Shown here: positions 1,241 to 24,800 of the stretch, piece after piece | Position numbering within the stretch: position 1 is the first letter of the stretch | Layout: the number at the start of each line of letters is the position of its first letter | NCBI GenBank assembly: GCA_042584585.1 | Contig: JBHOSQ010000002.1 | Location: 32,001-96,000 of the forward strand | From: an archaeon | GTDB taxonomy: Archaea; B1Sed10-29; WALL01 | DNA length: 64,000 nucleotides | Direction of reading: 5' to 3' | Notes under the pieces: model-generated | Told to the model about the DNA's origin: nothing | The model's input: only the letters and a program-made list of their open reading frames with translations | Databases searched by the model: none | Position numbers and translations under genes: made by a program

Positions 1241-2448
1241 GAACAAAAGGACAATTCTATATTTTGATTCTGGTGTTTATGATCTCGGTAGTCGTGGGGG
1301 TTGCTTACTTCACGACCGAGTCAAAACAACTGGAACAAGAAACGGACATCGAGCAGGAGCCAATGCTGCAGACGATTATGGACGGCTACGAGTCAGAGCT
1401 GAAGGCATCCATCGAAGGCGGGCTCTACAGCGGAAACCCCGCGTTCTACCAAGAGGTAGAGGCCAAGCTCACCACCCAAGCCGCCCAAAAAGGCTACGGG
1501 TTTACTTCTGACTGCACTCGGACCCCAATCAATAGCTACAGCGAGCAAATCGACTGTGACATCGAGCTCTCGGTGGGCGAGAACGTTTTGACGACGAGCT
1601 TTTCCCACACCTATGCCGTGGAATTCGGGATAGAGCTGTACGCGGACGAGGACTACACCCACAAAACCACTTACTACGCGCCCGGCGACACGATTTATTA
1701 CCGCGTGACGTCGCCCGCGCCCAGCGACACCAACGTGACCATCAACTACCCGGACGACCAGGAAAAAGAGAAGCAGGAAAAAAGCGGCACAGGCTTCGCG
1801 AACTTCGCTACGTTCGGAACCATTGACGTGGACGAGACCACGGGCGAGTGGGAAATATCGCTGGACAGCTCGGCCGACTCCATGAGCACAGCGTTTTACG
1901 TCCAGGAGTCCGTCGTCGACATCACCACGTACGACTCAAGCTGGATTCCCCAGGACACGTTCAACCGCGGCGAAGAAGTCAAGTACCGCATCGTCGTGTC
2001 GCCTTCCGCGAACGTTTACATGGACGTCACCGCCGGCGGGCAGGACAGGGACTACGACTGGTGGAGCGATGCCCCATCAACGCTGCACGAGTCCAGCTTT
2101 GTGGTGAGCTCGGTGGAGAGCTCGGGCACCGTTTTGACTTTGACGGCGATTGAGGACGGCTACTTCGGCGAGGCGTCGGTGAACATCACTGTTTTGTACG
2201 TGCCGTACGGCGCGTTCATTCCAGTGGACCTGGAGTACGAGCACGTTCCGTTTGACGCGTTCAAGACCTCGTGTGGGTACGAGGAGTGGTACGCCGGAAC
2301 CACGACTAACAACAGCGGCGTGCCGTTCGACTGCGTGCCGACGGGCGACGCGGTGGTGCGCGTTGCGAACGAAGTCGAAGTGATTAGTGTTCCACACGTT
2401 TACGCAGACAAACTCCATATTCTTAGCTCGAGGTGTGACGATTGCTGA
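1231..2448 (+). CDS. Large prepilin-like protein with Ig-like repeats, ending in a half beta-sandwich domain
   Basis: Leader TKG|QFYILILVFMISVVVGVAYF. Two similar Ig-like units (YYAPGDTIYYRV / TFNRGEEVKYRI). C-terminal FIPVDL...GVPF...DKLHIL segment (see findings). Confidence 0.8.
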   Translation: MEIGTKGQFYILILVFMISVVVGVAYFTTESKQLEQETDIEQEPMLQTIMDGYESELKASIEGGLYSGNPAFYQEVEAKLTTQAAQKGYGFTSDCTRTPINSYSEQIDCDIELSVGENVLTTSFSHTYAVEFGIELYADEDYTHKTTYYAPGDTIYYRVTSPAPSDTNVTINYPDDQEKEKQEKSGTGFANFATFGTIDVDETTGEWEISLDSSADSMSTAFYVQESVVDITTYDSSWIPQDTFNRGEEVKYRIVVSPSANVYMDVTAGGQDRDYDWWSDAPSTLHESSFVVSSVESSGTVLTLTAIEDGYFGEASVNITVLYVPYGAFIPVDLEYEHVPFDAFKTSCGYEEWYAGTTTNNSGVPFDCVPTGDAVVRVANEVEVISVPHVYADKLHILSSRCDDC

Positions 2449-2825
2449 AAGTAATTAGTGTATTGTTATTGGCAGCCCTTTTGGTTGGCTGTACAAACAC
2501 GGAGGAAGCCCCGGAGCCGACGGCAACGCTGGAGCCATTCGTGTCCCCCACGCCAGGGACATCAACAGCCACGGCAACACCAACAGCCACACCCGAGCCA
2601 ACGCCAATTCCCATTCCAACTAAAACATTCACCACGCAGTACGAAGTCTGTGAAGACCTTACTGAAACATGGTACTGCCTCACCGACAACGGCCTTGTGA
2701 CGTGCACGCTCACGGGCATCAACGCGCCGAGCTACACGCCCAGCGAAATCACAGTTACGTGCTTCAACTTCGACTCACTCGAAGAAACAGAAGAATTCGT
2801 TATACGTGTAGGTGATTCCCAATGA
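2442..2825 (+). CDS. Lipoprotein with Pro/Thr-rich linker and small Cys-containing domain
   Basis: Lipobox LLAALLVG|C. TATATPTATPEPTPIPIPT linker. TTG start preceded by GAGGTG. ATGA overlap with the next gene. Confidence 0.75.
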   Translation: MLKVISVLLLAALLVGCTNTEEAPEPTATLEPFVSPTPGTSTATATPTATPEPTPIPIPTKTFTTQYEVCEDLTETWYCLTDNGLVTCTLTGINAPSYTPSEITVTCFNFDSLEETEEFVIRVGDSQ

Positions 2826-5800
2826 AATGGCTCTTTGTTTTTGTTATAGCACTGCTATTGGTGACTGTGACAGTCGAGGCACTGGGCACGGAAATAACGC
2901 TCAAAACCAGCTACGCCAGCGCCGACTCGCCCGGGGGCGGCCCAGGCGCGAAAAACGTGTGGCGGGACCGCGATGGATTCTACCACATTATTTTCCATGA
3001 TGGCACGAACGACAAGCTCTACTATACTTACAGCACTTCAACCGAGCCGACGAGCGCGGCCCACTTCATTACGCCGGTAATCATCTTTAATAGCGCGGAG
3101 AGGGGCTCGATGTGGCTCGACGTCTCGAGTGGCATCATCCACCTCGCTTATGCCGAAGTAGACGCGAGCCCGAGGCTAGTCTACGCAAAATGCGACACTG
3201 ACGTCGGGTGCACTAGTGGCTGGACCTCGGTCGGCACAATTTACAACGGCCAGACCTATGGCTTGGCGAGCATCGTGTACCAGCAGTACACCGACATGGT
3301 AACGCACTACATAACGCACTTCGTCTACGTAAAAGACACACTGCGGTACCGGGTTTACTACCGGGATTACGACACCGCTAGAATCTCGCCGTACTGGGGC
3401 ACCGAGCAGATAGTCGACAACCTCCCGAGCGGCACCACGCAGCGCTACGTCCACCCCAGCATCGACAGGGACACCAGCGGAAGGATACACTTAGTCACCC
3501 GGACGTGGGTTGACGGCGGTGCACTCAGCACCAGAAAATGCTTGTACACCGCATCGACGGACGCCGGCCAGACCTGGAAAAACCTTGCCGGGTCAGTCGG
3601 GTACAACGACCTGCTCAGCAGCAACTACGTAGAAGCCTGCTCCATAAATGTCCCATCCCCCGCCAAAAGCTCGAGCTACCAAGTGCCACACGTCGCGATT
3701 GAAGGGGCCAGCAGCCACACCCAGTGGCACACGAAAGGAAGCGCGCTGACCGGAGGCACGTGGAGCACCCCATGGAGCTACTACACCAGCTATGCGAACT
3801 GGGGGAACCTAGGGAGCGACATCAACGGCAACACGTTTTATAGTTATTCTAGACGGAACGGCGTCGTCGGCTATGTCTACGCCAGGCAGCGAAACAACGC
3901 GGGGGCCTGGCAGACCCAAGACACACTACACGCCAGCGGCAACAGCGCGCACCAAGTGATGGAGGCGCACGCGCCGCTCTGCAGCCGGGGCGACATCGGC
4001 GTGCTCTACGGAGCCACGGGAACCAGCACCCTTTACTTCCGCACGATAGACGGCGCGTACAGCGAATGCAACACCCCGCCCACGCTCAGCAGTGTCACGG
4101 TCTCAACAGACCCAATCCAGGGTGGGGGCGAACAAACAGTGACTCCAAGCGGCCAAGGCGACGCGGACTCTGACCCGCTGAAGTTTGTATGCTGCATCGG
4201 AGAAGGAGCGTCATGCACGCCCACGACCGGGAACACCGTCTGTAATGAAGGGCAGACCACGTACTCATCCCCGTACTCGTCCATGACGTGCACGTACGAC
4301 GCTACTGCCGGGGCAACCCAAAGTGAAGCCGCGTACTGCCGCACGTACGACGGCACTGAATACCACATGGAAGTTGGTGGCGCAAACGACGCTTATGACG
4401 TTGACTCAGACGCGCCAGTGACGACTGACAACGGGGTCGCCGACAACTGTTACGGTGGGGACTGGAGCTTAACTCTCTCACCGACCGACGCTGGTGCCGC
4501 AAGCGTTGACTGGACCAAGTACTGCGTCGACGATGTGTCCAACGACTGCACGCCAAGCACGACTGGGACTTCGGTGCCAACTGACTGTGGCGCCGGCAAC
4601 GCGTGTGACGTCTACGTGCGCTACCAATCACAGGACACGGTCGGCAACCTTGAGAGCGTGAAGTCCAGTGGAAACATTAGCATCGACCGCGCGCCCCCGA
4701 ACCCGTCAAGCATCACTGGCATAGTGCCAAGCGCGGGCCAGCTCGCCGTTACCGCGTCGCAGGTTACGGACGTTGGGTGCTGGGGCGACAACTGGTACTA
4801 CTTTACTTGTGCATCCGGCGCGTGCAACGACCGGACATGGACACTGAACGACTGGACCCACACCGACGTGGGGCTCGCCCCAGCAACGGAATTCTGTTAC
4901 ACCATTACAGTGAGAGACGGCGCGACCAACACAGGCAGCGCGTCTTCACAAGTGTGTGGCATCACGCCCGGGAACCAGCCAACGAGCATGTCGGCGACTG
5001 CGTCCATAGCCGCGCCGCTTAACTCGGAAAGAGGCAACGTTGACTTGTCGTGGAGCGCGAACAGCAACCCCGGCGGAACTATATACTCAATAGAGCGCGA
5101 CCAGGCCTGGATTGCAAACACGACGAGCACGACGTATACTGACACGGCCGGCAGCGACAACACGGAGTACTGCTACCGCGTGCGCGCGGCGCACCCGAGT
5201 GGCTCATACGGAAGCTACAGCACGGAAGAGTGCGCGATGACCGCTGACCGCACTTCCCCCGCGACGCCCAGTCTGACTGCGGCCGCGGACAACGTGCTGA
5301 ACCAAGTAAACTTGAGTTGGGACCAGGGCGACGACAACTTGGTCGGCTACTGGCCGTTCGAGGAAGGCAGTGGCTCATCAACTGATGACTGGAGCCCGGC
5401 CGGCGGCGACGGCACGCTGCAGGGCCCGGACTGGATTAGTGGGCAATACGGGCGGGCGCTGGACTTCGTGCTCGCAAACACGGATTACGTTGACGTGCCT
5501 TCGGGGGCGTTGCTGGACCTAAGCGCCGGGACCAACAGCTTCACAATAGTCGGGTGGATAAATCCGGACCTGTCGCAAGACGTTGGGCCGATTATTTCCA
5601 CGAGGGACGTGATAAACGGCGTGGTGACCAAGGGCTACGGATTCGAGACCAACATAAACACCGCGAACGGCATGAAGGTGAACAGCCTACGGCTGGTGCT
5701 CGGCACTCCAGCGTGGAAGTGGAACGTGTGGGGCTCGGAAACAAACAGCCTCGTGCCGGGGTCGTGGCAGCACGTCGCGGTTGTGGTGACCGGCACTAAT

Positions 5801-8800
5801 ACGGCGTCGAAGACAGTGCAGTTCTACATCGACGGCGTCGAGTCCAATACATATTACTGGACAGCAAGCACAGAAACAGATGTATTGCTTTGGGGTGACA
5901 ATCCGTTGTCGAACCGCATCGGCGGGTACTATCCCGCGACTTACCCACCGTATGGCGTCGGCTACTTCGACGGAAGCATTGACGAGTTAAGGGTTTATGC
6001 CGGCAAAGCGTTCACGCAAGAAGAAATATTCAACGACATGGAGTCAGGGCTAATCACGCACGGCGTGCACAGGGGCGCGACTTCCTGGGAGTACGGGCCG
6101 GCCGACGGGCTAGCCGACAACTTCAGCGACGGAGACTACACAAATGACCCCACGTGGACCGTGCCCGTTGGCACCTGGGCCGTGAGCTCGGAAAAACTGA
6201 CACAATCATTCACGGGCGGCGGCTGGACAAAGATAACCGCCGGGAGCTCCAGTTGGGACGACTACGTGTTTTCTGTCAAAGTAAAGCCAACCACCATCAC
6301 TGAGACGTATCCAAACGTTGGTCTCATGTTGAGGGCGCAGAACTCTAACACGTACTACGGTATCTTCCACCACCAAGACGACAACACGTGGAGAGTTTAT
6401 GACTACCAAGATGCCGCGTACATATTCACGTCAAGCGCAATGAGCCTAGCCATGAACGAATGGCACGAGCTGAAGGCAAAAGTAGTGGGAGACAACCTCA
6501 AGTTCTATGTCGACGGAGTGCTGGTCGCGGACCTAACGGACAGCACAATGTCCACAGGGTACATCGGCCTGCTGACGCTGTACACCGCCGCAGAATTTGA
6601 CGACATCAAAGTAACACCGCTCATCGCTGACGACGAGTACGGGGACAGCGGCGCGGCAGATACCACTGCACCGAACAACGGCGCGACGCCCACGATTGAC
6701 CAAATCGCGATTAACAGCATGCGCGTGAACTGGGGCACGTCCGCGGACAACGGCAACACCTGGTACCACTACATCACGGCCTTCGACGACGAAGGCAACG
6801 AAGACAACATTTTCCACGACGGGGGATGCGAGAAGGGCACGAACCCATGCTACTTCAAGGCTGGGAGCCTCGTCAGCAGCGGGTACACAGTGGACAGCTC
6901 TGTCGCGTACACTGGTGGATACTCTGTCCGGCAGGACACCTCCTCAAGCACCAAGTACTTCGGCTCGGACTTCATCATAGGCACTGACATTGAGCCGAAC
7001 ACAGACTACATCGCAGAGTGCATGGTGAAGACTGCTTTGTCCGCGGGATACGCGAGGATATACCCAGAGCACCAGTTTACGACCCTGCACTTCAACAGTG
7101 TGAGCGGCACAACAGACTGGACGAGGATACACACGTCATTCACCTCCGGTGCCTCGGGCGACGTGCGCCTCCTCCGGTACACAATGGGGACCGCCACCGG
7201 CCAAACGTGGTGGGACGACTGCACGCTCCACAAGCTCACTGAGACCACAGTTACTACCGGCGTTGGCTCGGACGACTATTATGTCTACAACACAGTCGGC
7301 AGCGGCGATGGTGGGACGAACAGTAGTTGGCAGGCGACCCCCTACACCGACACCAGTCTGTCGGCTAACACTCAATACTGTTACAAGGTCCGCGCAAGAG
7401 ACAATGCGGGAACGCCGAATGTCGGCGACTTCGGCTCGCAGACGTGCAAATGGACCCTCCCGGAAGACCCTGACGCCATCTGCACGTCCGGCCACGTGGC
7501 TGGCACATGGAGCAGCAACAACGACCCCTCCTTCACCATCGACGGCGATGCAAACGCGTACCACTACGATTGGAACGGCGCGTCAAGCGACACGATTACC
7601 ACCGGTGACTCGACAATCACAAGCCCACACACGTTCACGGACACCGCGGACGGCACTTGGTACCTGCACCTCATAAGCGCGAACCCAGACGGCGCAGTCA
7701 ACCCCGGGGGCACGCAAACATTCTCGGTCGGCGGGTGGAAGATAGACGCCACTGCGCCGACATCAGTCAGCACAAGCGGGGGCACGGCGGGCTGGCAGAA
7801 CACCGCCGCAAGCGCGGGCGTCTCGTGCAGCGACGCGACCAGCGGGTGCGACACAAGCACTTATAGAGTATACAACCGCGGGAGCGCGGGGGCGTGTGAC
7901 ACCAACTACGCAACTTACACGCAAACAGTGCCGTACTCCGTCACGAGCCAGCAGTGGATATGCGCCGCGGCAAAAGACAACGCGGGCAACGTAAAGTACC
8001 AAGGCACCGCAACCGAGTTCCAGGTCGACATGCTTGACCCCACCACGAGCGACAACGCGGACACGGTGACGTGCCACAACATCGACCAAACAGTGACGCT
8101 GACTCCAGGAGACACCGGCGGGTCAGGGCTCGCGGACACTGATTACTGCGTTGACACCGGGAACTCTTGCACCCCGACCACAAGTGGCACAAGCGCGAGC
8201 GTCACGTGCGCCGACGGCGGCTATTGCCAGCAGTACGTGAGGTACTTCTCTACTGACACAGCGGGCAACACCGAGACAGTGAACTCCGTGGGCACCATAA
8301 AAATCGACAAGGCTCCGCCGAGCACGCCGAGCATCACCGTGATAACGCCCGGCAGCCAGCAAATTGCGCTCACGTCAAGCGTTGTGAGTGACGTTGGCTG
8401 TGAAGGCGGAGTACAGTACTACTTTGACTGCGTGTCCGGTGCTTGTAACGACCGGACCTGGGCGTCCGGGAACACTTACACCGACACTGGCTTGGCCGAT
8501 AATACTTACTACTGCTACAAAGTCAAGGCAAAAGACGCGAACAACAAAGAGACTGTGCTGTCCGCCCAACAATGCGCGTGGACCACCACTCCCGCGCCGA
8601 CGCTGGACTCCGTGACTGCGGAGGAGGACGGCCTGCTAGTCGCACAGAAGGACAGCCTTCTTATTGACTGGACAGGCAACGGCGCCACTTCGTACGACCT
8701 CGAGAGGACGACAGACACCACGACCGTTTACTCAGGCGGCAACACGGACTACACAGACCTAAACCTCGACGACAACAGCGAGTACTGCTACCACGTGCGG

Positions 8801-11800
8801 GGCGTTGACGGCGGAGGCACGCCAGGCAGCTGGTCAAGCACAGTGTGCGGGATTAATGCCGACCGCACCGGGCCCACGAGCCCGGTCTACAACGCGACCG
8901 GAACACAGGGCAATCCGGCGACTGACTGCGTGCACATTCTTGAAGAAAGGGGAGCGGTGGCGAGCGGCGTGTACTGGATTGACCCACTGCAGGACGGCGG
9001 GGGATTCGAAGTATACTGTGACATGCTTACTGACGGCGGCGGCTGGACGCTCGTGGACAACGACGCGGTCAACGCAGAAGTATTCCTTTCCCGTGAGCCA
9101 ATAGCGAACACCGACCCCGGAATAACAGCTGGCAAGTATTTGCAGGAGTGGGCGTGGGGCCCACAGCCAAGGCTCATGGTCAAGAGCTCAGTGTACAATG
9201 GAGACTTGAACTGGGTTACGTTGATTCCGTTGACTGCGTTTGCCAACGAGTACCCGACCGTGACCACTCAGCCGACCAGCGAGCCAGACGCGTGGGCGGC
9301 GGACAAGCTGAACGGCAACATGTGGAACGACGGCGGCTCCTGGATTTACTCCGGGTCAGGAAGGTTTGGCTCGGTGTGGATTGGGAACGGCGGCGCGCCC
9401 ACCGCAGCGTGCAACTACGCAAGCACGAAAGTGAGTGGGCTCGGCACGTACGCCAACGGTGACGTCTCGACGTGCTCTACTTGGGTGCGGCCGCGTGACC
9501 CACCAGTGCCCGCGAACAGTGTTTCGTTCGAGTGGACCCAGGGCGACTCGAACCTAGTGCTTTACATGCCGTTCGAGGAAGGCACTGGAGCGGCGACGGA
9601 CGACTGGAGTTCCAGCGAAAACGACGGCACGAAGATTGGGACCTGGACAACAGGGAATACAGACACATACACTGGAGGCGCACTGAACTTTGGCGGCAGT
9701 AGCGAGTATGTAAATATTCCGTACGACGCGAGCCTTGCACCCGACCAGCTGACGGTCATGGCGTGGTTCAACGCGGACGCCTTTGTCAACAACCAGAGAA
9801 TAGTCTCGAAGACAGAGGGTGGCGGATACCAGTTAAGCATTAACGAAGCGGCCTGCCCCGGAGAAGTATGCATGCTCGTCCATACTGGGAGCTATCACGT
9901 TGTCAGCTACGCACATTCAAACTTGAACACTGGCCAATGGCATCACATGACAGGAACATACGACGGCAGTACCGCGAAGCTGTACATAGACGGCGTTGAA
10001 GTAGACTCCAACTCAAACCCCAGCGGCAACATTGTGTACAACGCGAACAACCCCTTGTGCGTCGGGGCTGAAGCCACTTCAAACAGCTGCGGCGGCGGGT
10101 ACCAATTCCTTGGAGAAGTCGACGAAGTCCGCGTGTACGACACGGCACTCACGCAGCGCGAGATAATCGATGCGATGCAGTCGGGTGTAATAGGCCACGG
10201 AGTGCTGCGGGCCGACAACAATGCAGGAGGCGCCACGTACACGCCTGTCGGCGGGCTGATTAGCGCCACCAGCGGCACACTCGCGCCAGAAGACTATGTT
10301 CAAGACTTCTGGCTGGAGTTCGACTCCATGGAAGACGTGAGCGGCGGCGAGGCGTGGGAAGTGCAGTTCAAGGACGGTGGCGCCTTTGAGTACATTGTCG
10401 ACAGGACATCGCTCACCAATGTGCGGCTGCAGAACACTGCTTGCGGCGGCACGCAGCAATCATTCACCGCGCCAATCGGCCAAGGAGTGTGGGAAAACAT
10501 AGACATAATCAAGCACGGCGCCGACATTATGATTTATCAGGACAACGTATTCGTCGGCGAGACGACCCTCCAGTCCTGCAACGACCCATTCGACACAATC
10601 ACAATCAGCGGCGAAGGAATGAAGAACATCAGGCTCGTGCCGTTCAACTACGACAACGAGATTACCGACACGGTTGCAAAGGACGAGACCGGGCCCAACA
10701 CGCCAAGCGCGCCGACTGTCACGGCGGTGTCAACCAGCAGCCTGAGTGTTGATTGGACTGAGGTCACGGACAACGGCGACGACTGGTTCCACGTTGTTAC
10801 TGCATGGGACGACAACGGGAACGACGACAACATACTCAACAACTGGCCCAGCATCAAGGAGTACTACGGGCTTGCGGGATATCCCTTCTGGAGCGACGCC
10901 ACGCTCCGCAGCAGCGGGCGCGTTGAGCCCGGTGAAAGGATAATGATACAGTTCTACGAAAAGCTCCACCCCCTCTCGGCCGCGGACAGTGACTGGGTGA
11001 GCTGCTACATATATGAAACCGGGCCATGGGCAAACTCGTGCAGCGACTCAAGCGCCGCCACAACATGGGACTGGGGACAGTGCAACCGCATCGTGGGCAC
11101 TGGCGGCACGGACTACGTGGTCGGCTGCTACCACGGGCCCAACAACGAGCACACCGCAGACGGCGCATATGTGCGGGACCTACGGCTCCGCAAAGTCCAC
11201 GAGGAAACCGTCATCACAAACACAAAAGACTACTACGTCGCCGGGACGAGCCTGAACGCGTGGTACACGAGCGGCGCGCAGGCCGCGGGCAGCCTCTCGA
11301 GCAACACGCAGTACTGTTACACTGTCAAGGCGCGGGACAACGGGCTCAACGAGGGAACGGCGAGCGGCTCCGGGTGCAAGTACACCTTGCCGGTCGACCC
11401 GACGTTCTCGGTGAGCCACACCGCGAGCCAATGGAGCGCGGACGACACCGTGGAATTCACGGTCAGCAACTCGGACGGCGCTACTTACTACTACGTTTGG
11501 GACCAGAACCCGGGGACAAACCCAACCGGTGGGACCACGTGGGACGGGACACTGCTCACCAAGACCGCGACTGCGGACGGCAACAACTGGTACCTCCACG
11601 TTGTGGCGGAAAACCCGGACAACGCCCAAAACCCGAATGGCGCAGAGCACCTCGGGCCGTACTTCATTGACACGACCGGGCCGTCGAGTGTTAGTACAAC
11701 TGGCGCCCCGGCGGGATGGCAGAACACTGACGCCAGTGCGAGTGTTTCGTGCAGCGACGCGAGCAGCTTGTGCGACTCGGCGACTTACAGGGTTTACAAC

Positions 11801-12328: not shown

Positions 12329-12332
12329 TACA

Positions 12333-12893
12333 ATGGCTAAGAAGAAAAAGATCAAGGTCGACCCCAAAGTTTGGTGGGTGGTCGGAGGAATAATAGTGGT
12401 TGCAGTCATAGCAGCGGCATTCCTCATGGCCAGCGACCAGGGAATAATCAAGCCAATCACGATTCCGGGGCTGCCCGCGGGCCCGGAGCAGCCAATAAAG
12501 CTGTGCGACTACAACGGCGTCTGTGACGGCGTGGAGACGCGCGAGTCGTGCCCCGAGGACTGCATCGAGCCGCAAGCGCTTTCAGTGGAACGGGACGAAG
12601 AGTCCCCTGTGACTGACTCGACGCCAACAGTCGAGATACTCATGGAAAGCGGGACCGGCGTCGCGTCTTGTGGGACGGGCACAAACGACGCCACGCAGTG
12701 GGAATGCGTTGTGGAGGAGCCGGGCGCAATCAGCACAATGGTGCGGTGCACGCTACTGAATTATCATTTTGACGGCAAGTACATGCTTGCCTTGCGGTGC
12801 AAGGACAACAACGGCGCTGACTTGCCCATGCAGCTCATTGACGACACAACGGTTTGTGCGGACCCCGTAACCGGATGCGGGAGGTGGCTCTAA
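12333..12893 (+). CDS. Membrane-anchored Cys-rich protein
   Basis: Basic N-terminus plus one TM helix (VWWVVGGIIVVAVIAAAFLM), a Pro-rich linker, a CDYNGVCDGVETRESCPEDC Cys repeat and an Ig-like C-terminal domain. It abuts the next gene. Confidence 0.75.
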   Translation: MAKKKKIKVDPKVWWVVGGIIVVAVIAAAFLMASDQGIIKPITIPGLPAGPEQPIKLCDYNGVCDGVETRESCPEDCIEPQALSVERDEESPVTDSTPTVEILMESGTGVASCGTGTNDATQWECVVEEPGAISTMVRCTLLNYHFDGKYMLALRCKDNNGADLPMQLIDDTTVCADPVTGCGRWL

Positions 12894-15800
12894 ATGAAGT
12901 ACGCCGCATTGTTCGCGCTGCTTTTGATGGTCAGCACAGCCTTTGGCTTATTGATAGTTGACTGGAGCCCGCCGGACGGGACCATAACGCTGTACGACAC
13001 ATGGAACCAAGATGTTAGCTACGGCAGGGGATGCAACAGCCCAATTTGTGATAACTACCCCCCGGGCGTGGACGGGCAGGTCACCGTGAACTTCACGAAC
13101 GTGACTGATGCATACGAAGGGCAAGCAGTCGCCGTGGCCGGACTGGAGAATTGTTGGATAACCGACTGTGAATTGCTGGACAAGACCGGCTGCCCGGCGT
13201 GCCCGTACGTGAGCTGCGAGGCGTATAGCCCGGACAACGCATTCTTTAACTACGGCGACCCCGTGGACGGGTCAAGCGTCGACTGGACCACCATTGAGGG
13301 CACCGGCGACCAATACGACACCCACTTGGCACACGAGCTTTGGACCGAGGGGCCCGGCACCGACTGGTCGCCATCATGGCCCACACTCCTCCCGCAACCG
13401 AACGAAGGCGTTAGGACGATTAAAGCAATTTGCGCAGACAAGGCGGGCAACATTGCCATCCAAATGCAAGACGACATTTATGGTGACTTTGTGGACCCAT
13501 ACGCCACGATTAGTTACAGCGGCGGATACCAATCAAGCACCAGCATAAGCATCACACAGACTGCCTCGGACCAAGGCAGGAGCCCACCACCGGACCCAAT
13601 AACACATGACACGCAACGGGACCGCGCCGTGATGGCGGACGGAGTGCTGGGAGCGTGGGAAGGCTGGTCCACCATTGACACCAGCGGCACGAACTTCAAT
13701 TGGGACGGGCCGGACTGCTACGGAGTCAAGCTCAGGTACCGCAGCCACGACGTTGCGGACAGGTATAGTGATTGGGAAGACCCAAGTATTACAGTATATA
13801 TAGATACTAACACCCCTGGTGCAGTTGGGTCGCTCACCTCGACCTCGCACCCCCTTGGCACCACTGCGTACGCGAACCAGACCGCGACATTCACGTGGAG
13901 CGACCCGCAGCCGTGCAGCGGGACGCAGTACTACGCGACCGCGGTGACGCAGAGCTCGTCGCACTCGTGGACTGGGACCGAGCCGACGTCGGCCGGCACG
14001 AGCAACGTGACGACCGGGTTGGCCGAAGGGACTTGGTACTTCCACATCCGGTCGCGGAACAACGCTGGCACGTGGGGGACCGCGGACTCGTTCATGATTA
14101 ACGTTGACTTGGGGGCGCCGACGCCGAACCCCGCGACGGTTGCGAGTGTGGTCGTGGACTCGGACACACAGGTGACTGTCACCGCGACCACGGCGACTGA
14201 TGCGTTCGCCCCGATTTATTACCGCGCGAACGAGACGACTGGAAACAGCGGCGGCACGAACTTCACGTGGCAGACAGGCACGTCGTTTGTTGACGGCGGG
14301 CTCGCAATAAGCACGCAGTACTGTTACATTGTCCAGTACAAGGACAAGTGGGACAACGAGGGCGCGTGGACCACGACACCAGTGTGTGACTACAGCAATG
14401 CAGCGGTGCCCGGGGCGCCGACAGTGACTCTCTTGCCAGAGAGCAGCCCATTGAACAGCGGGCTCACGATGGCGAACATCGTTATCGACGAGAACGGGAA
14501 CCCGGCCACAGTGCTCTACAACATAAAAGACGTGGCCACCGGACTCCACGTACAGGCGGACGGAACGCTTGGAGCCAGCGCAGCATGGATGAGTTATGTA
14601 AACTGGGGCGGCTCGAGCGGGATTGACGTAACGCTCGAGGACGATTTTGTGTACTCATTCGCTGTAAAGGCGAATGGGGGCGGAGGGGACTTCAGTGCTT
14701 ACGGACCGGCGATTACTGTGACAGCATTGGACAGAACCGGACCGTCGCCAGTGGACTTGACCGCGACAGCGGACATCGCAAACAACCGTGTCAACTTGAC
14801 GTGGCCGTGGGCAAGCGATGAGATAGCACCGGATATTGACTCCGGATTGGTTGGGCACTGGGAGCTGGAGGACAACACGCTTGACAGCTCAGGCAACGGG
14901 CACGATGGAACCAACCCACTGGGCATTTCATGGGTGGACGGGATACAGGGACAGGCGGGCCACTTCGTAAACGGCCGGACGGCGACGGACATAACCACTA
15001 ACTACTTGCCCTTGACGGTGAGTTTTTGGGTCAAGGAAGACGCAAACACATGGGAGTCCTCCGCCGCAATCGGAAAGCGCGACGGGTCTAGCGGGTGGAT
15101 GTTTTACCGCAATCCCACGTGGGGAGACGGCAACCTTGGGCTCTTGACCTATTACGTAAACACTGACCCCATCACCACAAGCTACATCAACTACGTTTAT
15201 GGGCTCAACGACGGCAATTGGCACCACATCGCGTTCACCATTGAGAACGGCGTGACGACGACTTACAAGGATGGCGTGCTGAACGAGCGGTACGTCATGC
15301 CTAACTTCGACTACTGGCTCAACAACTCCCAGGGCATAAGTCTTGGCTCCGAAAAGGCGGGTAGTGCGAGCTGGAACTTCGACGGGTACTTGGACGACAT
15401 GCGCGTGTACGACCGCTTGCTCACGGAAGACGAAATAAAGGCTTTGACACTCGTGGGGCAGTGGCACTTCGATGAAGGCACTGGCACGGACGCGTTCGAC
15501 GCGAGTGGGTTCGGAAACGATGGGACGATAACTGGAGCCACGTGGGCTGACGGCGTGCACGGCAGCGCGCTTGACTTTGACGGGGCTGGCGACTACATCG
15601 ACGCTGGCACCGGGAACGGCTTTAAGATGGAGGACGGCGCCTTCACGTTTGAGGCAATGGTCAAAAGCGATGGGGGGATTGAAGCTTCTCCAGTCATTAT
15701 GCAAAGAATGTATAACGGAGACTGCGGCGGCTCATCCAATAGCGATGCCATGCGGCTTGGGACCACCCACACAGCCGGCTCTGGCAACCCCGAGTACCCA

Positions 15801-18800
15801 CTGTTCTGGGTCAGGGACAAAAACGGCAACTCGGCGACCGCCACCTCAACCGTCGACATAAACGACGGCAAGTGGCACCACGTGGCAGGCGTGAGGACTT
15901 CTTCAACAATATACATTTACGTTGATGGAGTTGAGACAGGCACTGCCTCCGCAAGCAGCATCGGGGAGATCTGCCCAACAAACCCGTTTGTAATCGGCAG
16001 GCACAGCAGCTCAGCCCAGCGCTTCAACGGAAAAATTGATGAGGCACGCGTGTGGCGCAGGGCGTTGACAGCGTCGGAGCTGCAGTCGCGCGCTTGGTAC
16101 ATGCCGTTCAGGTCTGCGATGCTTGAAGCGAACTATGATGCAATCAAGGGCGCGGCCGACGACTTCAGTGACGGGGATTACACGAGCAATCCTGTGTGGA
16201 CGCCGGGCATCGGTGGGAGCACATGGGGCGTCGAGAATGGGCAAGTGTTTACACAAAGCACGACCGCCTCTGAAAGCTCGCTCACGCTCACAGAAAACAT
16301 CGCGGCGGGCGAGCCGTTCGTGATGACCGTGGACAAGGTCACTGACTGGGCTGAAACCGGAATCCATGGCGGAGGACATTACATACGGCAATACACCGCA
16401 GGCAATTACCAAGTCTCGGGAGTGACCATACCCCACGCCTATGCCCAGCACTGGCGGCTAGAGTTCGACGGCACGACGTACAGGTTCTACTTGAACGACG
16501 AATTAATCCGCGAGTGGGCAGGCAGCAGTAACGGAATATTCGACCTTTATGACGACAGGAACGCTGCGAGTGGCAAAGTGTACTACGACAACGTCAAGGT
16601 TTATTCGCTGCAGGGCAACAGCTACGAGGACACTGACGCAAGCGACACCGAAGCGCCCGACACGCCAGGCGCGCCGACGCTCACCGCGTACAGCACTTCC
16701 ATACTAGGAGTCGCGTGGACAGGTGTGAGTGACACCGGCAACGACTGGTTCCACTTTGTCAAGGCGTTTGACACAACTGGGAACGAAGACAATTACCACC
16801 CGAGCAACGGGCTGGTCAGCTACTGGCCGCTCGGCGACGGGAGCACGGGCAGCGCAGACGGCGCGGTGACGCTGAACCGCGAGAGCACGGACCACGGAAC
16901 TGTGTACGGCGCGACGTGGGTCGATGGCGAGTACGGTAGTGCATTGGACTTCGACGGCGCCGACGACTACGTCACCATCGCCAACACGCACGCATTCGCG
17001 AACGACGACTTTAGTTATACCTTGTGGTTCAAGGCGGACACGCCGCAGGACAACTGGCAGGGCATTATGCTCCAGAACAACTACCACACCGGCGCGCCGA
17101 ACACGTTCTTCGTAGCCGCAATCAGGGGCACGAACGACCCGCCGAACCAGGACAAGGTGCAGGTGTACGACAGGTACAACGGCATCAACGTCGCCGACTA
17201 CTCGGACGGGCTTTACACCGACGGCGAGTGGCACCACTTGGCGGTCACTTATGACCGTGACGGCATGAGGCGGTTCTACATAGACGGCGCGTTCCAAAAA
17301 GAGACAGACATAAGCCCGCACATCGCCATCGCGTTCCAGACCGCGCCGCTGCAATTGGGGCGGGACCTCACTGGCGCACAAGGCGGAACCACCGGTGGAG
17401 TATACGCGTACGATGGCTCGCTCGACGAGATATTGATGTACAGCCGCGTCTTAACACCTGAAGAAGTCGCGGGCATCTACCACCGCGGCTTGATACAGCA
17501 AAGCACGGTCACGACCGGGATTAATGACTACTACGTGAACGGCACCTCACTGGACCAGTGGTACACCACATCACCGCAGAACGCGACCAGCCTCGGTACG
17601 AACACGCGGCACTGCTACAACATAACGGCGAGGGACAACGCGCTTAACGTCGGCAACGTGGGCGGCACGCAGTGCAACTACACGCTCGCGGTCAAGCCAA
17701 GCATCCTGGCTGGGTCCATGGTCTGCGACGGCAACACCAGCAGCGGGTACAAGTGTGACGTTCCCTTCAGTATGGGCGACAACCCGCTTTATACAGAGTA
17801 TTATATAACCGCGACGAGCACCGACGGCGGAACAGGATTCACGGACTCTGGGTGGATTACGGTAAGGGAGACCTATGTTGATACGGGCCTCGACCCGCAC
17901 AAGACGTACTGCTACAAAATCAACGCGAGAAACGGCGACGGAACACTCACCGGCCAGTACACCCAGGTGTGCAAGACCGTAGCCAACAACGTGCCAACGC
18001 TGGGGAGCGCGACCGGCAACACGGATCCAATCAAGGGTACGGCCCAGCAGACGCTTACAATCGGCGGGGTTGACGACCTGGACCAGGAATTGCTATACAT
18101 CCACTGCTGTACGGACGAGGCCAACACGTGCACGCCAACTAACATCAACGACGTGTGCAGCAGCAACGATGCCCATCCATACTCGTCGCTGTCTTGCTCG
18201 TATGCCACTGGTGGCGTGACGACTCGGACCGAATACGTGCGGTGCGTCACAAACGACACTCATGACGTTTCCACGCCGGTGACGAGCGACTCTTACCTCG
18301 TTGACTCGGTTGCGCCGACGACGACGGACAACCACAGCGCTGGCAGCTGCAACGCCGTCGACCAAGTCGTGAGCCTTTCTGCTGGCGACGATGTTGGAGG
18401 AGTCGGCGTGGACTCGACGCTGTACTGCGTGGACACGGCAAACACTTGCAACCCTGTGACAAGCTATTCGGCTCCGGTGACAGTGACTTGCTCGGCAGGC
18501 ACCGCGTGCACCAAGTACTTGAGGTACAACTCAAGTGACGTGGTGGACAACCAGGAAACGGTCAACAGCGCTGCCGTCCAAATCGACAAGTCCAATCCAG
18601 ACGACGGCGTGATAGCGAACATTGTGTCGCTCGGCACGGACAGCCTTAGGGTCACGGCCACCGCGGGCACAGACGACGGGTGCGGAAACTCGAGCCTGCA
18701 GTACTACTTCACCTGCCAATCCGGCGCGTGCAACGATGGCACGTGGCAAAGCGGATTGGTTTATGACGACAGTGGGCTGTCGCCGGCGACTGAGTATTGT

Positions 18801-21800
18801 TACAGTGTCAAGGTCCGGGACGACGCCGGCAACGAAGGCGCGGACTCCGCGGACACGTGTGCGTACACCGACGCGAGCGTGCCGACGATGGACTCCATCA
18901 CGGCAGAGGGCACGCCGCTTAACTCTGGAATCGGGCGAGTGGAAGTCAACTGGAGTGGCAACCCAGCCGGAACTGACTACGAAGTGCAGCGCGACAAGTT
19001 CTTGACGAGGTACAGCGGAACAAACACGGCTTATACTGACACTGGACTGGACAACACATGGTACTGCTACCGCGTGCGGGCCCAGCCGTCGGGAGGCTCG
19101 TGGAGCGGCTGGAGCAACGAATTGTGCACGGTTACTTTGGACAGGACTGGGCCGTCGCCGCCGAACTTGACTGCGACGCCGGACAACGTGAACAACCGCG
19201 TTGACTTGGACTGGACGTGGGCGAACGACGAAATCGCGCCGGACATTGACAGCGGAATGGTCGGGCACTGGAGGTTCGAGGAGGGCAGCGGCATAGCGAC
19301 ATATGACTCATCAGGAAGCAACATCGATGGGACTATAGTCGGCACCCCACAATGGGTTACAGGCCTAGCAGGCAACGCAGTCCAGCTGGACAACAGCTAC
19401 ATCAATCTCGGGGACGCTCCAACACTAGACATAGCTACTGAACTCACTTTATCCATGTGGGTGAAGCCAGATGCGTTTGTTGTGGACAAGTTCCTGTTCG
19501 GCGGCTCATGGAGTTACCACGGCTATTCCCTGCGCTTCGATGATGCCGATAACTCGCAGCTGGAATGGTATGTTGGTGACGGAAGCGCGTATCATTTCTT
19601 CACCTACCCCCACGGCATGGTAACAGGAAAGTGGTACAATATCGTATGCACTTATGACGGAACCGAAGGCAAGGTGTTCGTGAACGGGAACCTGATTGGC
19701 TCAAGAATCGAGCCGTTCATACCGGACGGCGCGTACATACAGGACCACGTGATTGGCACGGACGGAAGCAAGGCAAAACACTTCACTGGAACCATGGACG
19801 ACGTTCGCGTGTACAACCGCGCGCTCACCGACGAAGAGGTGAAGTGGCTGACTCTCGTCGGCCAATGGCACTTCGATGAAGGCACTGGCACGGACGCGTT
19901 CGACGCGACTGGGTTCGGAAACGACGGATCGTTTGTTGGTGACCCCGCGTGGACTGATGGCGTGCACAACACGGCGCTTGAGTTCGACGGAAGCAACTAC
20001 GTCAGCGCTGGAAGCAGCGAAGCCTTGAACCCGAGACAGCAGGGGTGGACCGCAGAAATGATGGTCAAGTCAACCCAGAAGAGCGGGGGCAACGGCGGCT
20101 ACATACGTGTCATGGGAAGGTACGAAGCAGGAGACTACTGGCTGCTCAGGACCCACACGAGCAGTGGTGACTACCCTGTGTTCCAGATAACTGATGGGAG
20201 TAACTCTGCCGGTGTCGCGGGCACTACAACCGTCACCGACGGCGTGTGGCACCACCTAGCGTTTGTGTATGACTACGACGACTCAAGGACATACATCTAC
20301 ATAGACGGAGTTGAAGACGCGGCCAACGATTGGACTGGAACCTCAATGGGGGACATCAACCCAAGCACTGCCCTCCAAATTGGTCAATCACAAGCAGCCA
20401 ATGAAGGATACAGCGGCAAAATCGACGAAGTCCGCGTGTGGAGAAGGGCATTGACCGCGGCAGAGATACAGGCACGGGCGAAGTACGGGCTGTATCGGGC
20501 TGCGGCGCTTGACGGGGCATACGAGCCAGTTGACGGGCTGTGGGATGACTTCGATGGCGCGGCTGTGGACACGGCTACGTGGACCGAACTAACTACCAAC
20601 GACGCATCCATAACAGTGTCCAACAGCGAAGTAACACTCGACGACAATACGGGGATAGCCCACCTAACCACACAAGAAAACTTTGGGGTGTATGGAACAC
20701 TTGAGTTCGACCTCAAGGCAAACACTCCCGAGCCGGGGTCCACTTGGTACAGAATAGCCAAAGTCCCAAACACGTTCTATGTCGACGCCGGCAACATTTT
20801 CTCTATATGGATGACCGGTGGAGTTCAGCTTGGCATAGTAAACGACTACGAATTCCATAACTGGAAGTTCACTTTGGACGGGACGCACATACGGGTTGTC
20901 TACGACGGCAACGTGATATACACGGCGGACCAGGCCAGCAGCCTGGGGACCATCCGCTTGGGCAACGACTTCAGTACCGAACACGGGAACATGGTGTTCA
21001 AAAACGTTAAGTTCACGCCGCTGATTAGCACGAACACATACCAAGACACTGGCGCGAGCGACACGGCAGGGCCGAACACTCCTGCAGCGCCGACTGTATT
21101 GCCCATCAACAGCACCGCAATGCAGGCCTCGTGGAGTGGAGTGGGAGACGTCGGCACCGGGTGGTGGCACTACGTCAAGGCGTTTGACTCGGAAGGCAAC
21201 GAAGACAATTATCACGACAGCAGCGAGCTCATTGGCTACTGGCCGTTCAGTGAAGGCAGCACGGGAAGCGCGGACGGAGTGACGACGTATGACTCCGTTG
21301 GCACCAACGAGGGCACGGTAAGCGGTGCGGCGTGGGCAACAGGCGCTTACGGCACAGCACTTGATTTCACTGGCGGAAACACAGACAAAGTAGCACTGGC
21401 CACTCCCCTCACCCAAACAGTGTGGAGCACGACCTTCTGGGCGCGGCAAGACGCCGGGGCAGACATCAAGGGAATGATAATGGGCGACACCAGCAACACA
21501 ATCAGCTTCATATGGTTCTGGGAAGGCAGCTACTTCAGGTTCAGGTCCAACAGTGGCACTCTCGACTGGCCAGAGCTGACCGACTTCACGACGATGGCCC
21601 ATTATGCACTCGTGAGCGACGGCGTTAGTGTAACGCTGTACAAGAACGGCGTGCAAGTCGGCAGCCCCCAGACGCCGGCATCAACAGAATTCACGGTAAA
21701 TGCGATTGGACAGGGGTACAACAACATTGACTATTCGTTTGACGGCGTGATTGACGAAGTGATGGTATACGACCGCGTGCTCACCGACGATGAAGTGGTA

Positions 21801-24800
21801 AGCAACTACAAGCGTGGCGCGGCCAAGTTCTCGACAGTTGTTACTGGCCTGCAGGACTATTACGTCAACGAGACCACTGGCAACGGCACCGGCGGGGCGG
21901 CGGCAGTGGCGGCGTACAACGACACCAGCCTGACGCCGAACGGATACGCGTGCTACGAAGTGCGGGCAAGGGACAACGCCAACAACTGGGGATTGTTCTC
22001 GAGCCCGACGTGCAACTACACGCTCGCGGTGACACCCGGGGCAAGCGTCACGTGCAGCCGAAACCCAGACCACTGCAACGTCACGATTTCACCGAACGGC
22101 AACGCGGCGGGCACAGAATACAACGTCAACAACACCCAGGGCGGAACCGACAGCGGGTGGATAACCGCGTCGTACTACGACGACACCAGCGTAAGCGGCC
22201 AACAAATGTGCTACAAGGTCAGGGCCCGCAACGCCAACGGAATCGAGACCAACGAGTCCACCGAAGTGTGCGACAACATGCCCAACACCGCGCCGACCAC
22301 GCCAGTGCTTGTGTCACCGACCAACGGCGCGATTGTCTCGACGCTGACGCCGACGCTTGATTGGCAGGACAGCAGTGACAACGAAAACGACAGCATTAAC
22401 TACGAAGTGTTGCTGTGGGGCGACACGCCACCAAGCTTCACGATAACCAACTTCAACAACGGCGCGAAGACCAACACCACGACCGACGCGGACAGGTACG
22501 GCCAGGGCAGTGGGCTGGAGCTGGACATGCCTTACGCGGCCAAGGACGCGAACCTCGTGTCGTACTGGAGGATGGAAGGCGACGCGGTGGACGAGGCCGG
22601 GCCAAACCACGGCACAATCACTGAAGCCACGCCAGACGCCGGAAAGTTCGGCAGTGGCCTGCACTTCGACGGGTCAAACGACAAGGTGACCATACAGAAT
22701 GACCCCTCGCTGAACCCGGCGCAGATAACAGTCGCGAGCTGGTTCAACCCGGACGTTGGAGGCATAGGAGAGCAAAAAACATTGCTGATGAAGGCCTTCA
22801 CGTCACACACCACGCCGCACTACCAGTACACGCTTACAATCATAGACAAGGTGGACTACGAAAAGAAGCTTGCGTTTTACGCGGCGGTTGGAGGGGTGCT
22901 TTACGACACGGGAGCGGGGTCACTCAACTACGACTACGGCGAATGGCACCTCGCAACCGGCACGTACGACGGCGGAACCATGCGCCTGTACCTGGATGAC
23001 CAAGAAGTGGCATTCAGCGATGCGCCCAGTGGACCACTGAACTCGTTCGACACAGAACTAGCGTTCGCAGACTACCCCAACCTCGGCGACACCTCGAGTT
23101 ACCAATACGGTGGGGTGCTTGACGAGATGAAGATTTACGACCGCCCGTTGACAGGGCCGGAAGTGACAGAGCTGTTCAACAACGGAAACCAGTACAAGGC
23201 ATACGGCTACTGGGAAAGCGAGACCATTGTCCCGCAGGGCGTGCCCAACAAGCTGAGCATAACCCACTCCGGGTTGAGCACGAGCTCTTACATAGACAAG
23301 GTCGAGTGGCTGGTAAGCGGGCAGGTCAAGGCAACGTACGGCACCGACGTGACAAGTGGGTCGCTCACAGAGATAACCACGCCGACAAGCGGGAGCTTCG
23401 ACGACGTAGACAGCGACTACAAGATACGGATTTACCTTGCCGGCGACGGGACCGCCACGCCAACGCTCACGCAGCTAACCGGCGAATACACCAGCCTGCA
23501 CAAGACCGGGCTGGGAAGCAGCCAATACATAATCCAGGCAAGTGAACAGTTGGTGGGCGGGAACTACAGCTGGAAAGTCAAGGCACACGACAGCTGGGCG
23601 TCGTCTGGCTGGAGCAGCACGTGGACGTTCCAGGTCCAGACCAACGACCCCGTGCTCAGCAGCGTGCAAGTCACGCCGGCGCACCCAACAGTAGTGGACG
23701 GCCTCGGGTGCTCGTGGGTGATTACAGACGTTGACTTCAACGACACTTTGACCGCGGACGTCACCTGGAAAAAGAACGGCGCGCCAATCGCCACGTGGGA
23801 CATCACGGGCATGGCCTGCCAGAACGGGCAGGTGTGCACCGCCACCAGCGCACCCACGTCCAGCGACATCGCGGCAGGCGAAGTGTGGACGTGTGTGGTG
23901 ACGGCAAAGGACGCGGCACAGCTCACAGACGAAAAGAACGACACGGCAACAATACTCAAGGCCCTTACGGTGTGGTACACGGACGGGACATACGACACGT
24001 TCGCGTACACCCCCGAGGCATGGGACGTGTTCAGCGCAAACATGGAGAGCACTTTCCAGGGCTCGTGCGGCGGGTTCGCGCCGAACTGGTGGAACACCAA
24101 CTGGCCGCTCAGGATACCCGTGGACGTCACAGAAAACACTGATGGCATGAGCCAATACCAAGTCAAGGTCGAGCTGGACGCTGGGTTCAACTACGGCGCC
24201 ACCGAGACAGGTGGGAGCGACATACGGTTCGCCGACGACGCCAAGGTGCCACTGCCGTACTGGATAGAGACGTGGAACCCGGGCGGGACGAGCGTGATTT
24301 GGGTCAAAGCCGACTTGGCTAGCGGGCCCAACCCATTGTGGATGTACTACGGCAACGCTGGAGAGCCGAGTGAGAGTGACGGGACCGCGGTGTTCATTTC
24401 GTTCGACGACGGCGAGGCCGGAAACTTGGTGCTCAACCCCGCGGGAGCGGGAAGCATCGAGCGCGTTGGCGGAAGGATCTACGGGGAATCAGTGGCGGCC
24501 GCGGACGGCTGGCTAATCGGGACAATCCTGTCCGGCGAGCCGTTCATCGCCAAGGCGAAGCTTGAGAGCGGCGCGACTGGCAACGGCGGCATCGAGGCAC
24601 TGGCCTTAAGCAACTGGGCGGCAGTGCCTGTTCCGATGATTAACACTGCGTTCAACCCCAACGCACGGTTCGGCATCAAGCGCTACCTGGACGACCACAC
24701 CTTGTACGTGCACTACATGGACAACGCGGGCAGCGGGTGGTACTACGACGCGGTGAACAACGTGTGGGCCGACAGCCCGACTAACTGGAAGGTTGCTGGG

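Follow-up and report, generated by a model that had tools for sequence, protein, structure and literature searches.

How does a very large surface protein of an archaeon carry its many binding domains: one after the other along the chain, or branching off from something they share? The question is raised by two giant open reading frames (ORFs) in a stretch of 64,000 nucleotides (assembly GCA_042584585.1, contig JBHOSQ010000002.1, positions 32,001 to 96,000 of the forward strand), here called the window. All coordinates below are window positions. The first ORF, P0001 (2822..12328, +, 3168 amino acids), carries two copies of a recurring scaffold, c1 and c2. The second, P0002 (12894..25199, +, 4101 amino acids), carries c3 and c4 and has a DUF2341 domain near its C-terminus. 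Both proteins start with a hydrophobic, signal-peptide-like segment. Each scaffold unit is probably a hub of two fibronectin type III (FN3) domains whose strands are interleaved, with lectin-type domains and carbohydrate-binding modules (CBMs) held in loops of the first FN3.

A sequence-only reading of the window had proposed four copies with the same motifs in order. This holds, and the refined limits are within ~40 nt of those first given: 5243-7453 (c1), 8858-11389 (c2), 14727-17687 (c3) and 19137-22025 (c4), all on the + strand. The motifs DRT.P, GN[ED]DN and DYYV are each found exactly once per copy and in constant order. A profile of the third constant piece, S3 (71 positions), was run against the 1.02-Mb assembly. 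It matches exactly four places, the window copies, with expect values (E) of 1e-32 to 1e-35, and the next match is at E 0.003.

Ten scaffold copies from three genomes, c1-c4 plus relatives, were placed in one alignment. In it, four constant pieces (S1 to S4) alternate with variable blocks, the slots. The window scaffolds are 37-50% identical to each other. S1 is 25-27 amino acids long, except for 41 in c2, where the alignment took in the start of a fibrinogen-like insert. S2 measures 19-25 and S4 70-89 amino acids. S3 is 60-61 amino acids long in eight of the nine copies where it is complete; the ninth, copy g1 of the related genome G024, has 67. Canonical FN3s stand immediately before each scaffold unit.

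The pieces can be read as FN3 strands. S1 resembles a linker followed by the A and B strands (V.L.W), and S2 resembles C and C' (Y.V.R ... Y..I). S3 has an E-strand-like beginning (Y.D) and ends in W.H.V.A.D..GNEDN; positions 17-50 of its profile match linker, A and B at the N-terminus of solved FN3s, for example those of fibronectin (5j6z) and titin. S4 opens with a G-like strand (TV.T) and then runs through C, C', E, F and G (DYYV ... CY.V.ARDN). In our reading the strand order is A1, B1, slot 1, C1, C', slot 2, E1; then A2 and B2; then F1, slot 3, G1; and finally C2, C', E2, F2, G2, where 1 and 2 stand for the first and second domain, FN3-1 and FN3-2. In g1 (L014 / start of L012) an extra Cys-containing loop of ~7 amino acids lies within A2-B2, the sole change of S3 length seen.

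With this order, the A-B hairpin of FN3-2 would be inserted in the EF loop of FN3-1. Equivalently, the F-G hairpin of FN3-1 would sit in the BC loop of FN3-2. The chain would therefore cross between the two sandwiches three times, not once. The slots are in the BC, C'E and FG loops of FN3-1. In the standard FN3 topology these three loops share one pole, and the same loops are varied in engineered monobodies.

The motif Y.Y.V.A.D..GNEDN at the end of S3 is also found in ordinary FN3s, where it forms the F strand and the FG turn and the G strand follows directly (five loci inspected). A degenerate DNA-pattern scan for this motif returned 43 loci. Of the 17 that were gone through, two hold the scaffold (in genomes G026 and G024), and 15 are short partial matches to ordinary FN3 pieces, mostly F strands.

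Each slot is found empty somewhere in nature. Slot 1 is empty in copy g2 of G024, where the sequence reads ..DLDWTATGTNYNLWRVS.. and the B1-C1 junction is a loop of six residues. Slot 2 is empty in copy g4 of the same genome. Protein P0005 lacks the contents of slots 2 and 3, and its 77% identical relative P0027 holds a CBM-like domain at slot 3. Finally, there are naked copies with all three slots empty, two in P0055 (~655-850 and ~1040-1235) and two in P0057 (~1667-1860 and ~2048-2240). The whole naked module spans ~190 amino acids, which is the size of two FN3s. From S1 to S3 the distance is 60-62 amino acids in naked copies, versus 226-651 in 10 loaded ones. From the end of S3 to F2 it is 45-48, where measured, versus 158-271. 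The pieces flanking an empty slot join as normal short FN3 loops. It follows that the scaffold pieces are not mere linkers between serial domains, and the original suggestion of side branches instead of beads on a string is supported.

The second part of the argument is structural. AlphaFold2 was run on g2 (504 residues, slot 1 empty) with a 10-row alignment. The model has a mean predicted local distance difference test score (pLDDT) of 64 and a predicted template modelling score (pTM) of 0.65. In blocks of 10 residues, pLDDT is 72-78 over A1-C' (11-50). For S3 it is 79-91 in the first five blocks (231-280) and 66 at 281-290, the end of F1. S4 scores 80-90 except for 61 at 451-460.

The model was aligned to the PDB with VIA in two runs, with 50 matches listed each. 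Among the matches listed, single solved FN3s align nearly whole to g2 ~245-504, with Z scores of 11.5-12.7 over 86-94 residues. These include 1qg3_B (Z 12.3, root-mean-square deviation 2.4, 86 residues from chain range 1127-1216, or 90 residues), 6x39_A (89 of its 100 residues, Z 11.7), 8fn9_B (92 of 99) and 7y5r_A (93 of 105). They cover g2 residues 245-272 and 441-504, and skip F1, the CBM and G1. Only A2B2 (~28 residues) and C2-G2 (64 residues) together can supply 86-94 residues, so in the model FN3-2 is discontinuous, with F1, the slot-3 domain and G1 looped out of its BC loop.

This looped-out piece between B2 and C2 measures ~170 residues in g2 and ~28 in naked P0057, which means that the sequence of FN3-2 is not contiguous. 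The Pfam fn3 profile bridges it: on a naked copy in P0057, protein residues 1745-1839 match profile positions 6-72 (A2 to F2) across the F1-G1 piece. Against a canonical FN3 profile, the window pieces re-ordered as A2B2 plus C2-G2 reach as much as 38.5 bits over the full length, a score that drops if F1G1 is kept. The sequence-only reading had held that a second FN3 begins before the first is finished, and both the g2 alignments and the fn3 match favour this. Tandem FN3 structures align from g2 residue 2-6 to 504 (5e4s over 151 residues, 6tpu_B over 147), and therefore the N-terminal scaffold pieces are FN3-like too.

That F1 and G1 complete FN3-1 is suggested by the sequence motifs: the interleaved assignment is the only one that gives each sandwich all its core motifs. 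Comparing the A1-G1 stretches of the four naked copies with a canonical FN3 profile by hhalign gave a probability of 79% and E 1.6e-5. Greedy extension, at low posterior confidence, reaches 86 columns (query 2-131, template 4-95 of 96), and its one gap coincides exactly with A2B2. In two of the four naked copies, hmmsearch splits the match into profile positions 20/25-72 and then 67/69-96.

Several results weigh against the interleaved pair. The models are of g2, which is 44% identical to c1, and not of a window copy; they come from a shallow alignment, and mean confidence is modest. The confident core of the hhalign match is B1-C1 only, 30 columns. Re-ordered FN3-1 pieces score just 1-14 bits against the canonical profile, and adding F1G1 gives no consistent gain. 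No contact of F1 or G1 with C1 or A1 was seen, with tools that yield ranges and not coordinates. No single FN3 was aligned to A1 through G1 among the 50 matches listed in either VIA run. In slot 2 of c2, c3 and c4 and in slot 3 of c2, moreover, no Pfam family backs the label 'lectin-like'.

A truncation test went against prediction as well. Removing C2-G2 was predicted to weaken A2B2 alone, with F1, G1 and A1-C' staying confident. Instead, the whole scaffold fell. In the fold of g2 1-445, block pLDDT is 26-32 at 1-90, 43 at 91-100 and 29-36 at 231-320, so that A1-C', ~400 residues upstream, is lowered too. Both inserted domains stay as they were, with 55-78 for the DUF1080-like domain and mostly 51-68 for the CBM, whose dip to 42 at 381-390 is also in the full model. 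The collapse fits one cooperative unit, but it could equally be AlphaFold fragility with a shallow alignment. A three-chain complex prediction of the de-slotted g2 pieces scored 0.18 and 0.11 against a mark of 0.32; it had no controls and counts neither way.

Some of these results can be explained differently. FN3-2 could be discontinuous while F1 and G1 form an extra hairpin on FN3-2 or on the slot-3 domain, leaving FN3-1 as a five-strand remnant propped by its inserts. The low scores of the FN3-1 pieces and the lack of a single FN3 over A1 to G1 among the listed matches fit this, and in the g2 model the final strand of the CBM and G1 form a single long strand (423-440). The naked copies, however, have no inserts to prop anything and still keep A1-E1 and F1-G1. 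Take A2B2 out of a naked copy, and a textbook E-F-G sequence is left. In addition, hhalign places F1 and G1 on the canonical F and G strands, colinear with A1-E1. FN3-2 needs no extra strands, because single FN3s already align 86-94 residues to A2B2 plus C2-G2. A remnant FN3-1 is unlikely.

Taking the hub of two interleaved FN3s as the working description, the four copies can be laid out as follows. In c1, the linker DRTSP with A1 and B1 (S1) is at 5243..5323, slot 1 (BC loop) at 5324..6043, C1 and C' (S2) at 6044..6109, slot 2 (C'E loop) at 6110..6622, S3 (E1, A2 and B2, F1 ending in GNEDN) at 6623..6805, slot 3 (FG loop) at 6806..7219 and S4 (G1, then C2 C' E2 F2 G2) at 7220..7453. Copy 2 begins with the linker DRTGP and A1 (8858..8923, boundary read from sequence), followed by an extra insert (8924..9496) and B1 (..SVSFEW.., 9497..9550, likewise read from sequence). 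Its slot 1 (9551..10180), S2 (10181..10255), slot 2 (10256..10645), S3 (10646..10828), slot 3 (10829..11179) and S4 (11180..11389) then come in the usual order. In c3 these are S1 14727..14807, slot 1 14808..16082, S2 16083..16151, slot 2 16152..16610, S3 16611..16790, slot 3 16791..17429 and S4 17430..17687. In c4 they are S1 19137..19217, slot 1 19218..20468, S2 20469..20537, slot 2 20538..21023, S3 21024..21206, slot 3 21207..21758 and S4 21759..22025.

Slot contents were assigned with the Pfam cut-offs for Laminin_G_3 (PF13385, 27.6), DUF1080/3keto-disac_hyd (PF06439, 26.8), CBM_4_9_1 (PF22637, 27) and Fibrinogen_C (PF00147, 22). For slot 1, one or two LamG domains had been announced, and this is what is there: one Laminin_G_3 in c1 (63.8 bits) and c2 (108 bits), and two, in two stretches each, in c3 (171 bits) and c4 (183 bits).

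For slot 2 a DUF1080/ConA-like domain had been announced, and the DUF1080 family is matched in c1 only, with 51.4 bits and a sequence match to the CBM66 structure 4azz (E 1.5e-5). The slot-2 domains of c2 (130 amino acids) and c3 (153 amino acids) match no Pfam family at E<=1 and so stay below the PF06439 cut-off; in c3 the first ~37 amino acids only resemble slot 2 of c1 (54%). The slot-2 domain of c4 (162 amino acids) is below that cut-off too, its sole Pfam match being a weak, unrelated one to 2OG-FeII_Oxy (E 0.03). In the relative g2, slot 2 is ConA-like by VIA alignment to the PDB (galactocerebrosidase lectin domain 3zr5_A, Z 16; CBM66 4azz_A, Z 15.6).

Slot 3 had been described as CBM-like or LamG. 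It holds Laminin_G_3 in c3 (68.1 bits) and c4 (39.8 bits), the latter 66% identical to slot 3 of g4. In c1 it is CBM_4_9_1-like at threshold, with 26.2 bits at the limits given here and 26.2-27.0 depending on the domain cut, against a cut-off of 27; the slot-3 domain also has low pLDDT in the g2 model. In c2 this domain of 117 amino acids has no Pfam match; it is 39% identical to slot 3 of g1. The fibrinogen-like insert claimed for copy 2 is partly confirmed: it scores 33.9 bits against Fibrinogen_C, but the match is limited to profile positions 4-48 of 221. It is placed between A1 and B1, outside the three slots.

On this reading, whole beta-sandwich domains (LamG, DUF1080/CBM66-like, CBM4_9-like and two unassigned types) would sit in the BC, C'E and FG loops of FN3-1. 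The hub of copy 2 would bear an additional fibrinogen-like domain between A1 and B1. The stalk, and the FN3-FN3 junction in it, may be stiff.

The contents of the slots do not follow the scaffolds around them. Between g2 on one side and c1 and protein P0003 on the other, identity is 79-80% in slot 3, versus 36-39% in the scaffolds and 21-27% in slot 2. In slot 1 of g4, the second LamG shares 67% identity with the LamG of c2, where the scaffolds share 39%. To the LamGs of c3 and c4 it is ~33-35% identical. Either the scaffolds exchange cassettes, or the modules differ sharply in the selection acting on them. The pairs in which a slot domain is present in one copy and absent from the other favour movement of cassettes. 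The mismatch of module and scaffold identity supports the original claim that slot contents are exchangeable. Loaded hubs probably arose through insertion and exchange of domain cassettes.

G024, which belongs to the same family as the source genome, has four scaffold copies. The contig ends of L014, L012 and L013 (contigs C14, C86 and C7 of this genome) overlap in protein sequence. The three appear to be one gene of >6000 codons with four scaffold copies, split by the assembly at repeats. Scanning the phylum gave scaffold matches in 3 of 31 genomes, including the source genome and all from one family; most of these 31 genomes are incomplete.

Searched exhaustively with phmmer, the c1 stretch of S3, slot 3 and S4 has 600 matches at E<=1e-3. 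Eight proteins besides P0001 and P0003 cover S3, or S3 through S4. In all, 19 scaffold copies were counted among 13 proteins. With the S3 profile as query, word-indexed searching brought up 18 proteins at E<=10; the top six were inspected, and the lower 12 judged by their Pfam lists and weak scores. Among the top six, P0013 (partial) is the sole true member, and the other five were rejected as ordinary multi-FN3 proteins with summed weak matches. Starting from P0005, a word-indexed search among shorter proteins found P0027 only. A narrow FN3 profile made from P0008 gave weak local matches only.

P0057 (3121 amino acids) has a subtilase domain, repeated Cys-rich modules, its two naked interleaved FN3 modules and one LamG. 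Judging from this make-up, the hub is tied neither to lectin loading nor to the source lineage.

The source is a small-genome DPANN archaeon. Its assembly of 1.02 Mb is 84% complete and has archaeal markers. The giants are flanked by pilin-like genes and a FlaI/T2SSE ATPase, with more giant surface ORFs further on. On the 5' side there are small ORFs at 360-839, 1231-2448 and 2442-2825 (+) with pilin-like N-termini (..KGS/KGQ, then a hydrophobic stretch); one of these has a lipoprotein-like start (..LLVGC). Their sequence suggests that they form a pilus and adhesin gene cluster with the giants. On the 3' side are deoxyhypusine synthase, PAC2, the FlaI/T2SSE ATPase and two T2SSF-like genes.

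The ATPase (25563-27212, +) carries an N-terminal 4Fe-4S dicluster ferredoxin domain (Fer4 25-98, T2SSE 191-465). Among pilus or archaellum ATPases such a fusion looks unusual. The space between P0001 and P0002 is occupied by 12333-12893 (+), which encodes a Cys-rich protein of 186 amino acids with one N-terminal membrane anchor and no Pfam match. It could be an anchor or partner of the giants.

Three further very large ORFs are found at 48065-55708 (+, 2547 amino acids), 55854-63398 (+, 2514 amino acids) and 31412-36070 (-, 1552 amino acids). The first two have CarboxypepD_reg, SdrD_B and SpaA-like folds, and the third has no Pfam match whatever. The S3 signature is in none of the three. Public sequencing runs containing c1-c2 are not listed.

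The most likely role of the giants is that of a multivalent surface adhesin for glycans, to judge from the domain types, the secretion signals, the pilus-type neighbours, the further giant surface ORFs and the DPANN lifestyle. The slot domains would bind glycans on a host surface or in a matrix. Enzyme or envelope-lattice roles are less probable. With the same architecture, the giants might be polysaccharide-processing enzymes or components of an S-layer or sheath, and the slots would then serve substrate targeting or lattice contacts. PF06439 is indeed named as a 3-keto-disaccharide hydrolase family, and the relative P0057 has its subtilase domain. The N-terminal region of P0001 (2822-4050, residues ~25-410), which is conserved at the N-termini of P0003 and the G024 protein, weakly resembles BNR/sialidase-like propellers (E 1.4e-4, below cut-off). 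Yet neither P0001 nor P0002 scores above the cut-off of any catalytic family, the solved sequence closest to slot 2 of c1 is a non-catalytic CBM66, and the neighbours are pilus-type genes. Such a role is improbable.

That the domains are simply sequential, the scaffold motifs being linkers or degenerate pieces of FN3 between lectin domains that were duplicated, and the interleaving a model artefact, is very hard to believe: the g2 model does have a low mean pLDDT from 10 sequences and the truncated run did lose all scaffold confidence, but the pieces are the most length-constant parts, every slot exists empty and leaves two FN3s' worth of chain, the looped-out piece is bridged both by Pfam fn3 and by solved FN3s, and the scaffold blocks have the top pLDDT of the model.

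The interleaved double FN3 may mean more than this. It might be an autonomous and previously unrecognised fold unit, in which the crossings lock the sandwiches and the N-pole loops are hot spots where recombination inserts, removes and swaps binding domains. That would make it a natural cassette system for branched, combinatorial adhesins in DPANN and some other microbes. This wider reading is offered tentatively, with rather more doubt than belief. If it is true, the system would be a domain-scale counterpart of the loop variation of antibodies or monobodies.

Should the topology alone be right, it would be a natural case of two small beta-sandwiches woven together, where the loops of one tolerate up to 4 folded domains. 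That would account for the way in which very large surface proteins of archaea can show several binding domains in a cluster and not in a row. Engineers would have a ready scaffold for displaying whole domains from FN3 loops. There would also be a handle on the variation of attachment proteins in DPANN episymbionts, through loaded versus naked modules and mosaic slots. For annotators there is a warning, as serial Pfam matches in such proteins may conceal nested architectures.

Much of this has precedents: arrays of FN3s, giant DPANN proteins rich in LamG, and FN3s that carry a loop insertion. The ordinary tandem FN3 arrays of bacterial and archaeal surface proteins have the same fold and landmarks as the scaffold: W in strand B, Y.V in C and Y.Y.V.A.D..GN in F. 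Their domains are contiguous, however, and joined by one linker, whereas here the A-B hairpin of domain 2 would lie inside the EF loop of domain 1, with three crossings. The 50 matches listed in either VIA run hold no precedent for interleaved FN3s, which is not proof of absence.

The insulin receptor domain FnIII-2 stays folded around a long insertion, as would be the case here: 89 residues of 7sl2_A were aligned over chain 594-808, a range whose insert we take to be the insert domain of FnIII-2. That is one largely unstructured insertion in a CC' loop. Here the AB, BC, C'E and FG loops would hold as many as 4 folded domains, and the neighbouring FN3 would be interleaved as well. Monobodies are engineered 10Fn3 domains with varied BC, DE and FG loops. 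They use the same three loops at one pole as a display face, for short peptides; here the display would be natural, and each loop carries a whole domain of 120-430 amino acids.

Other work on DPANN archaea has described giant surface proteins with LamG domains, namely ARMAN Mia14 (PMC5498576) and the giant proteins of nanohaloarchaea (PMC10266531). To judge by the opening lines of their abstracts, the likeness is in the small genome, the secreted LamG/ConA-like proteins of multiple thousands of residues and the presumed role in host contact; these lines make no mention of an interleaved FN3 pair. Titles and abstract openings elsewhere in the literature covered, which excludes subscription journals, likewise hold no interleaved FN3 pair and no lectin domains nested in FN3 loops. 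The branched adhesin design, an apparently interwoven FN3 pair with domains plugged into its loops, seems not to have been described previously.

Multi-CBM glycoside hydrolases and cellulosomal scaffoldins have serial modules joined by flexible linkers. Like the giants, with the CBM66 match in slot 2 of c1, they carry several carbohydrate-binding modules per chain. In the giants, by contrast, the modules would branch from the loops of one small domain.

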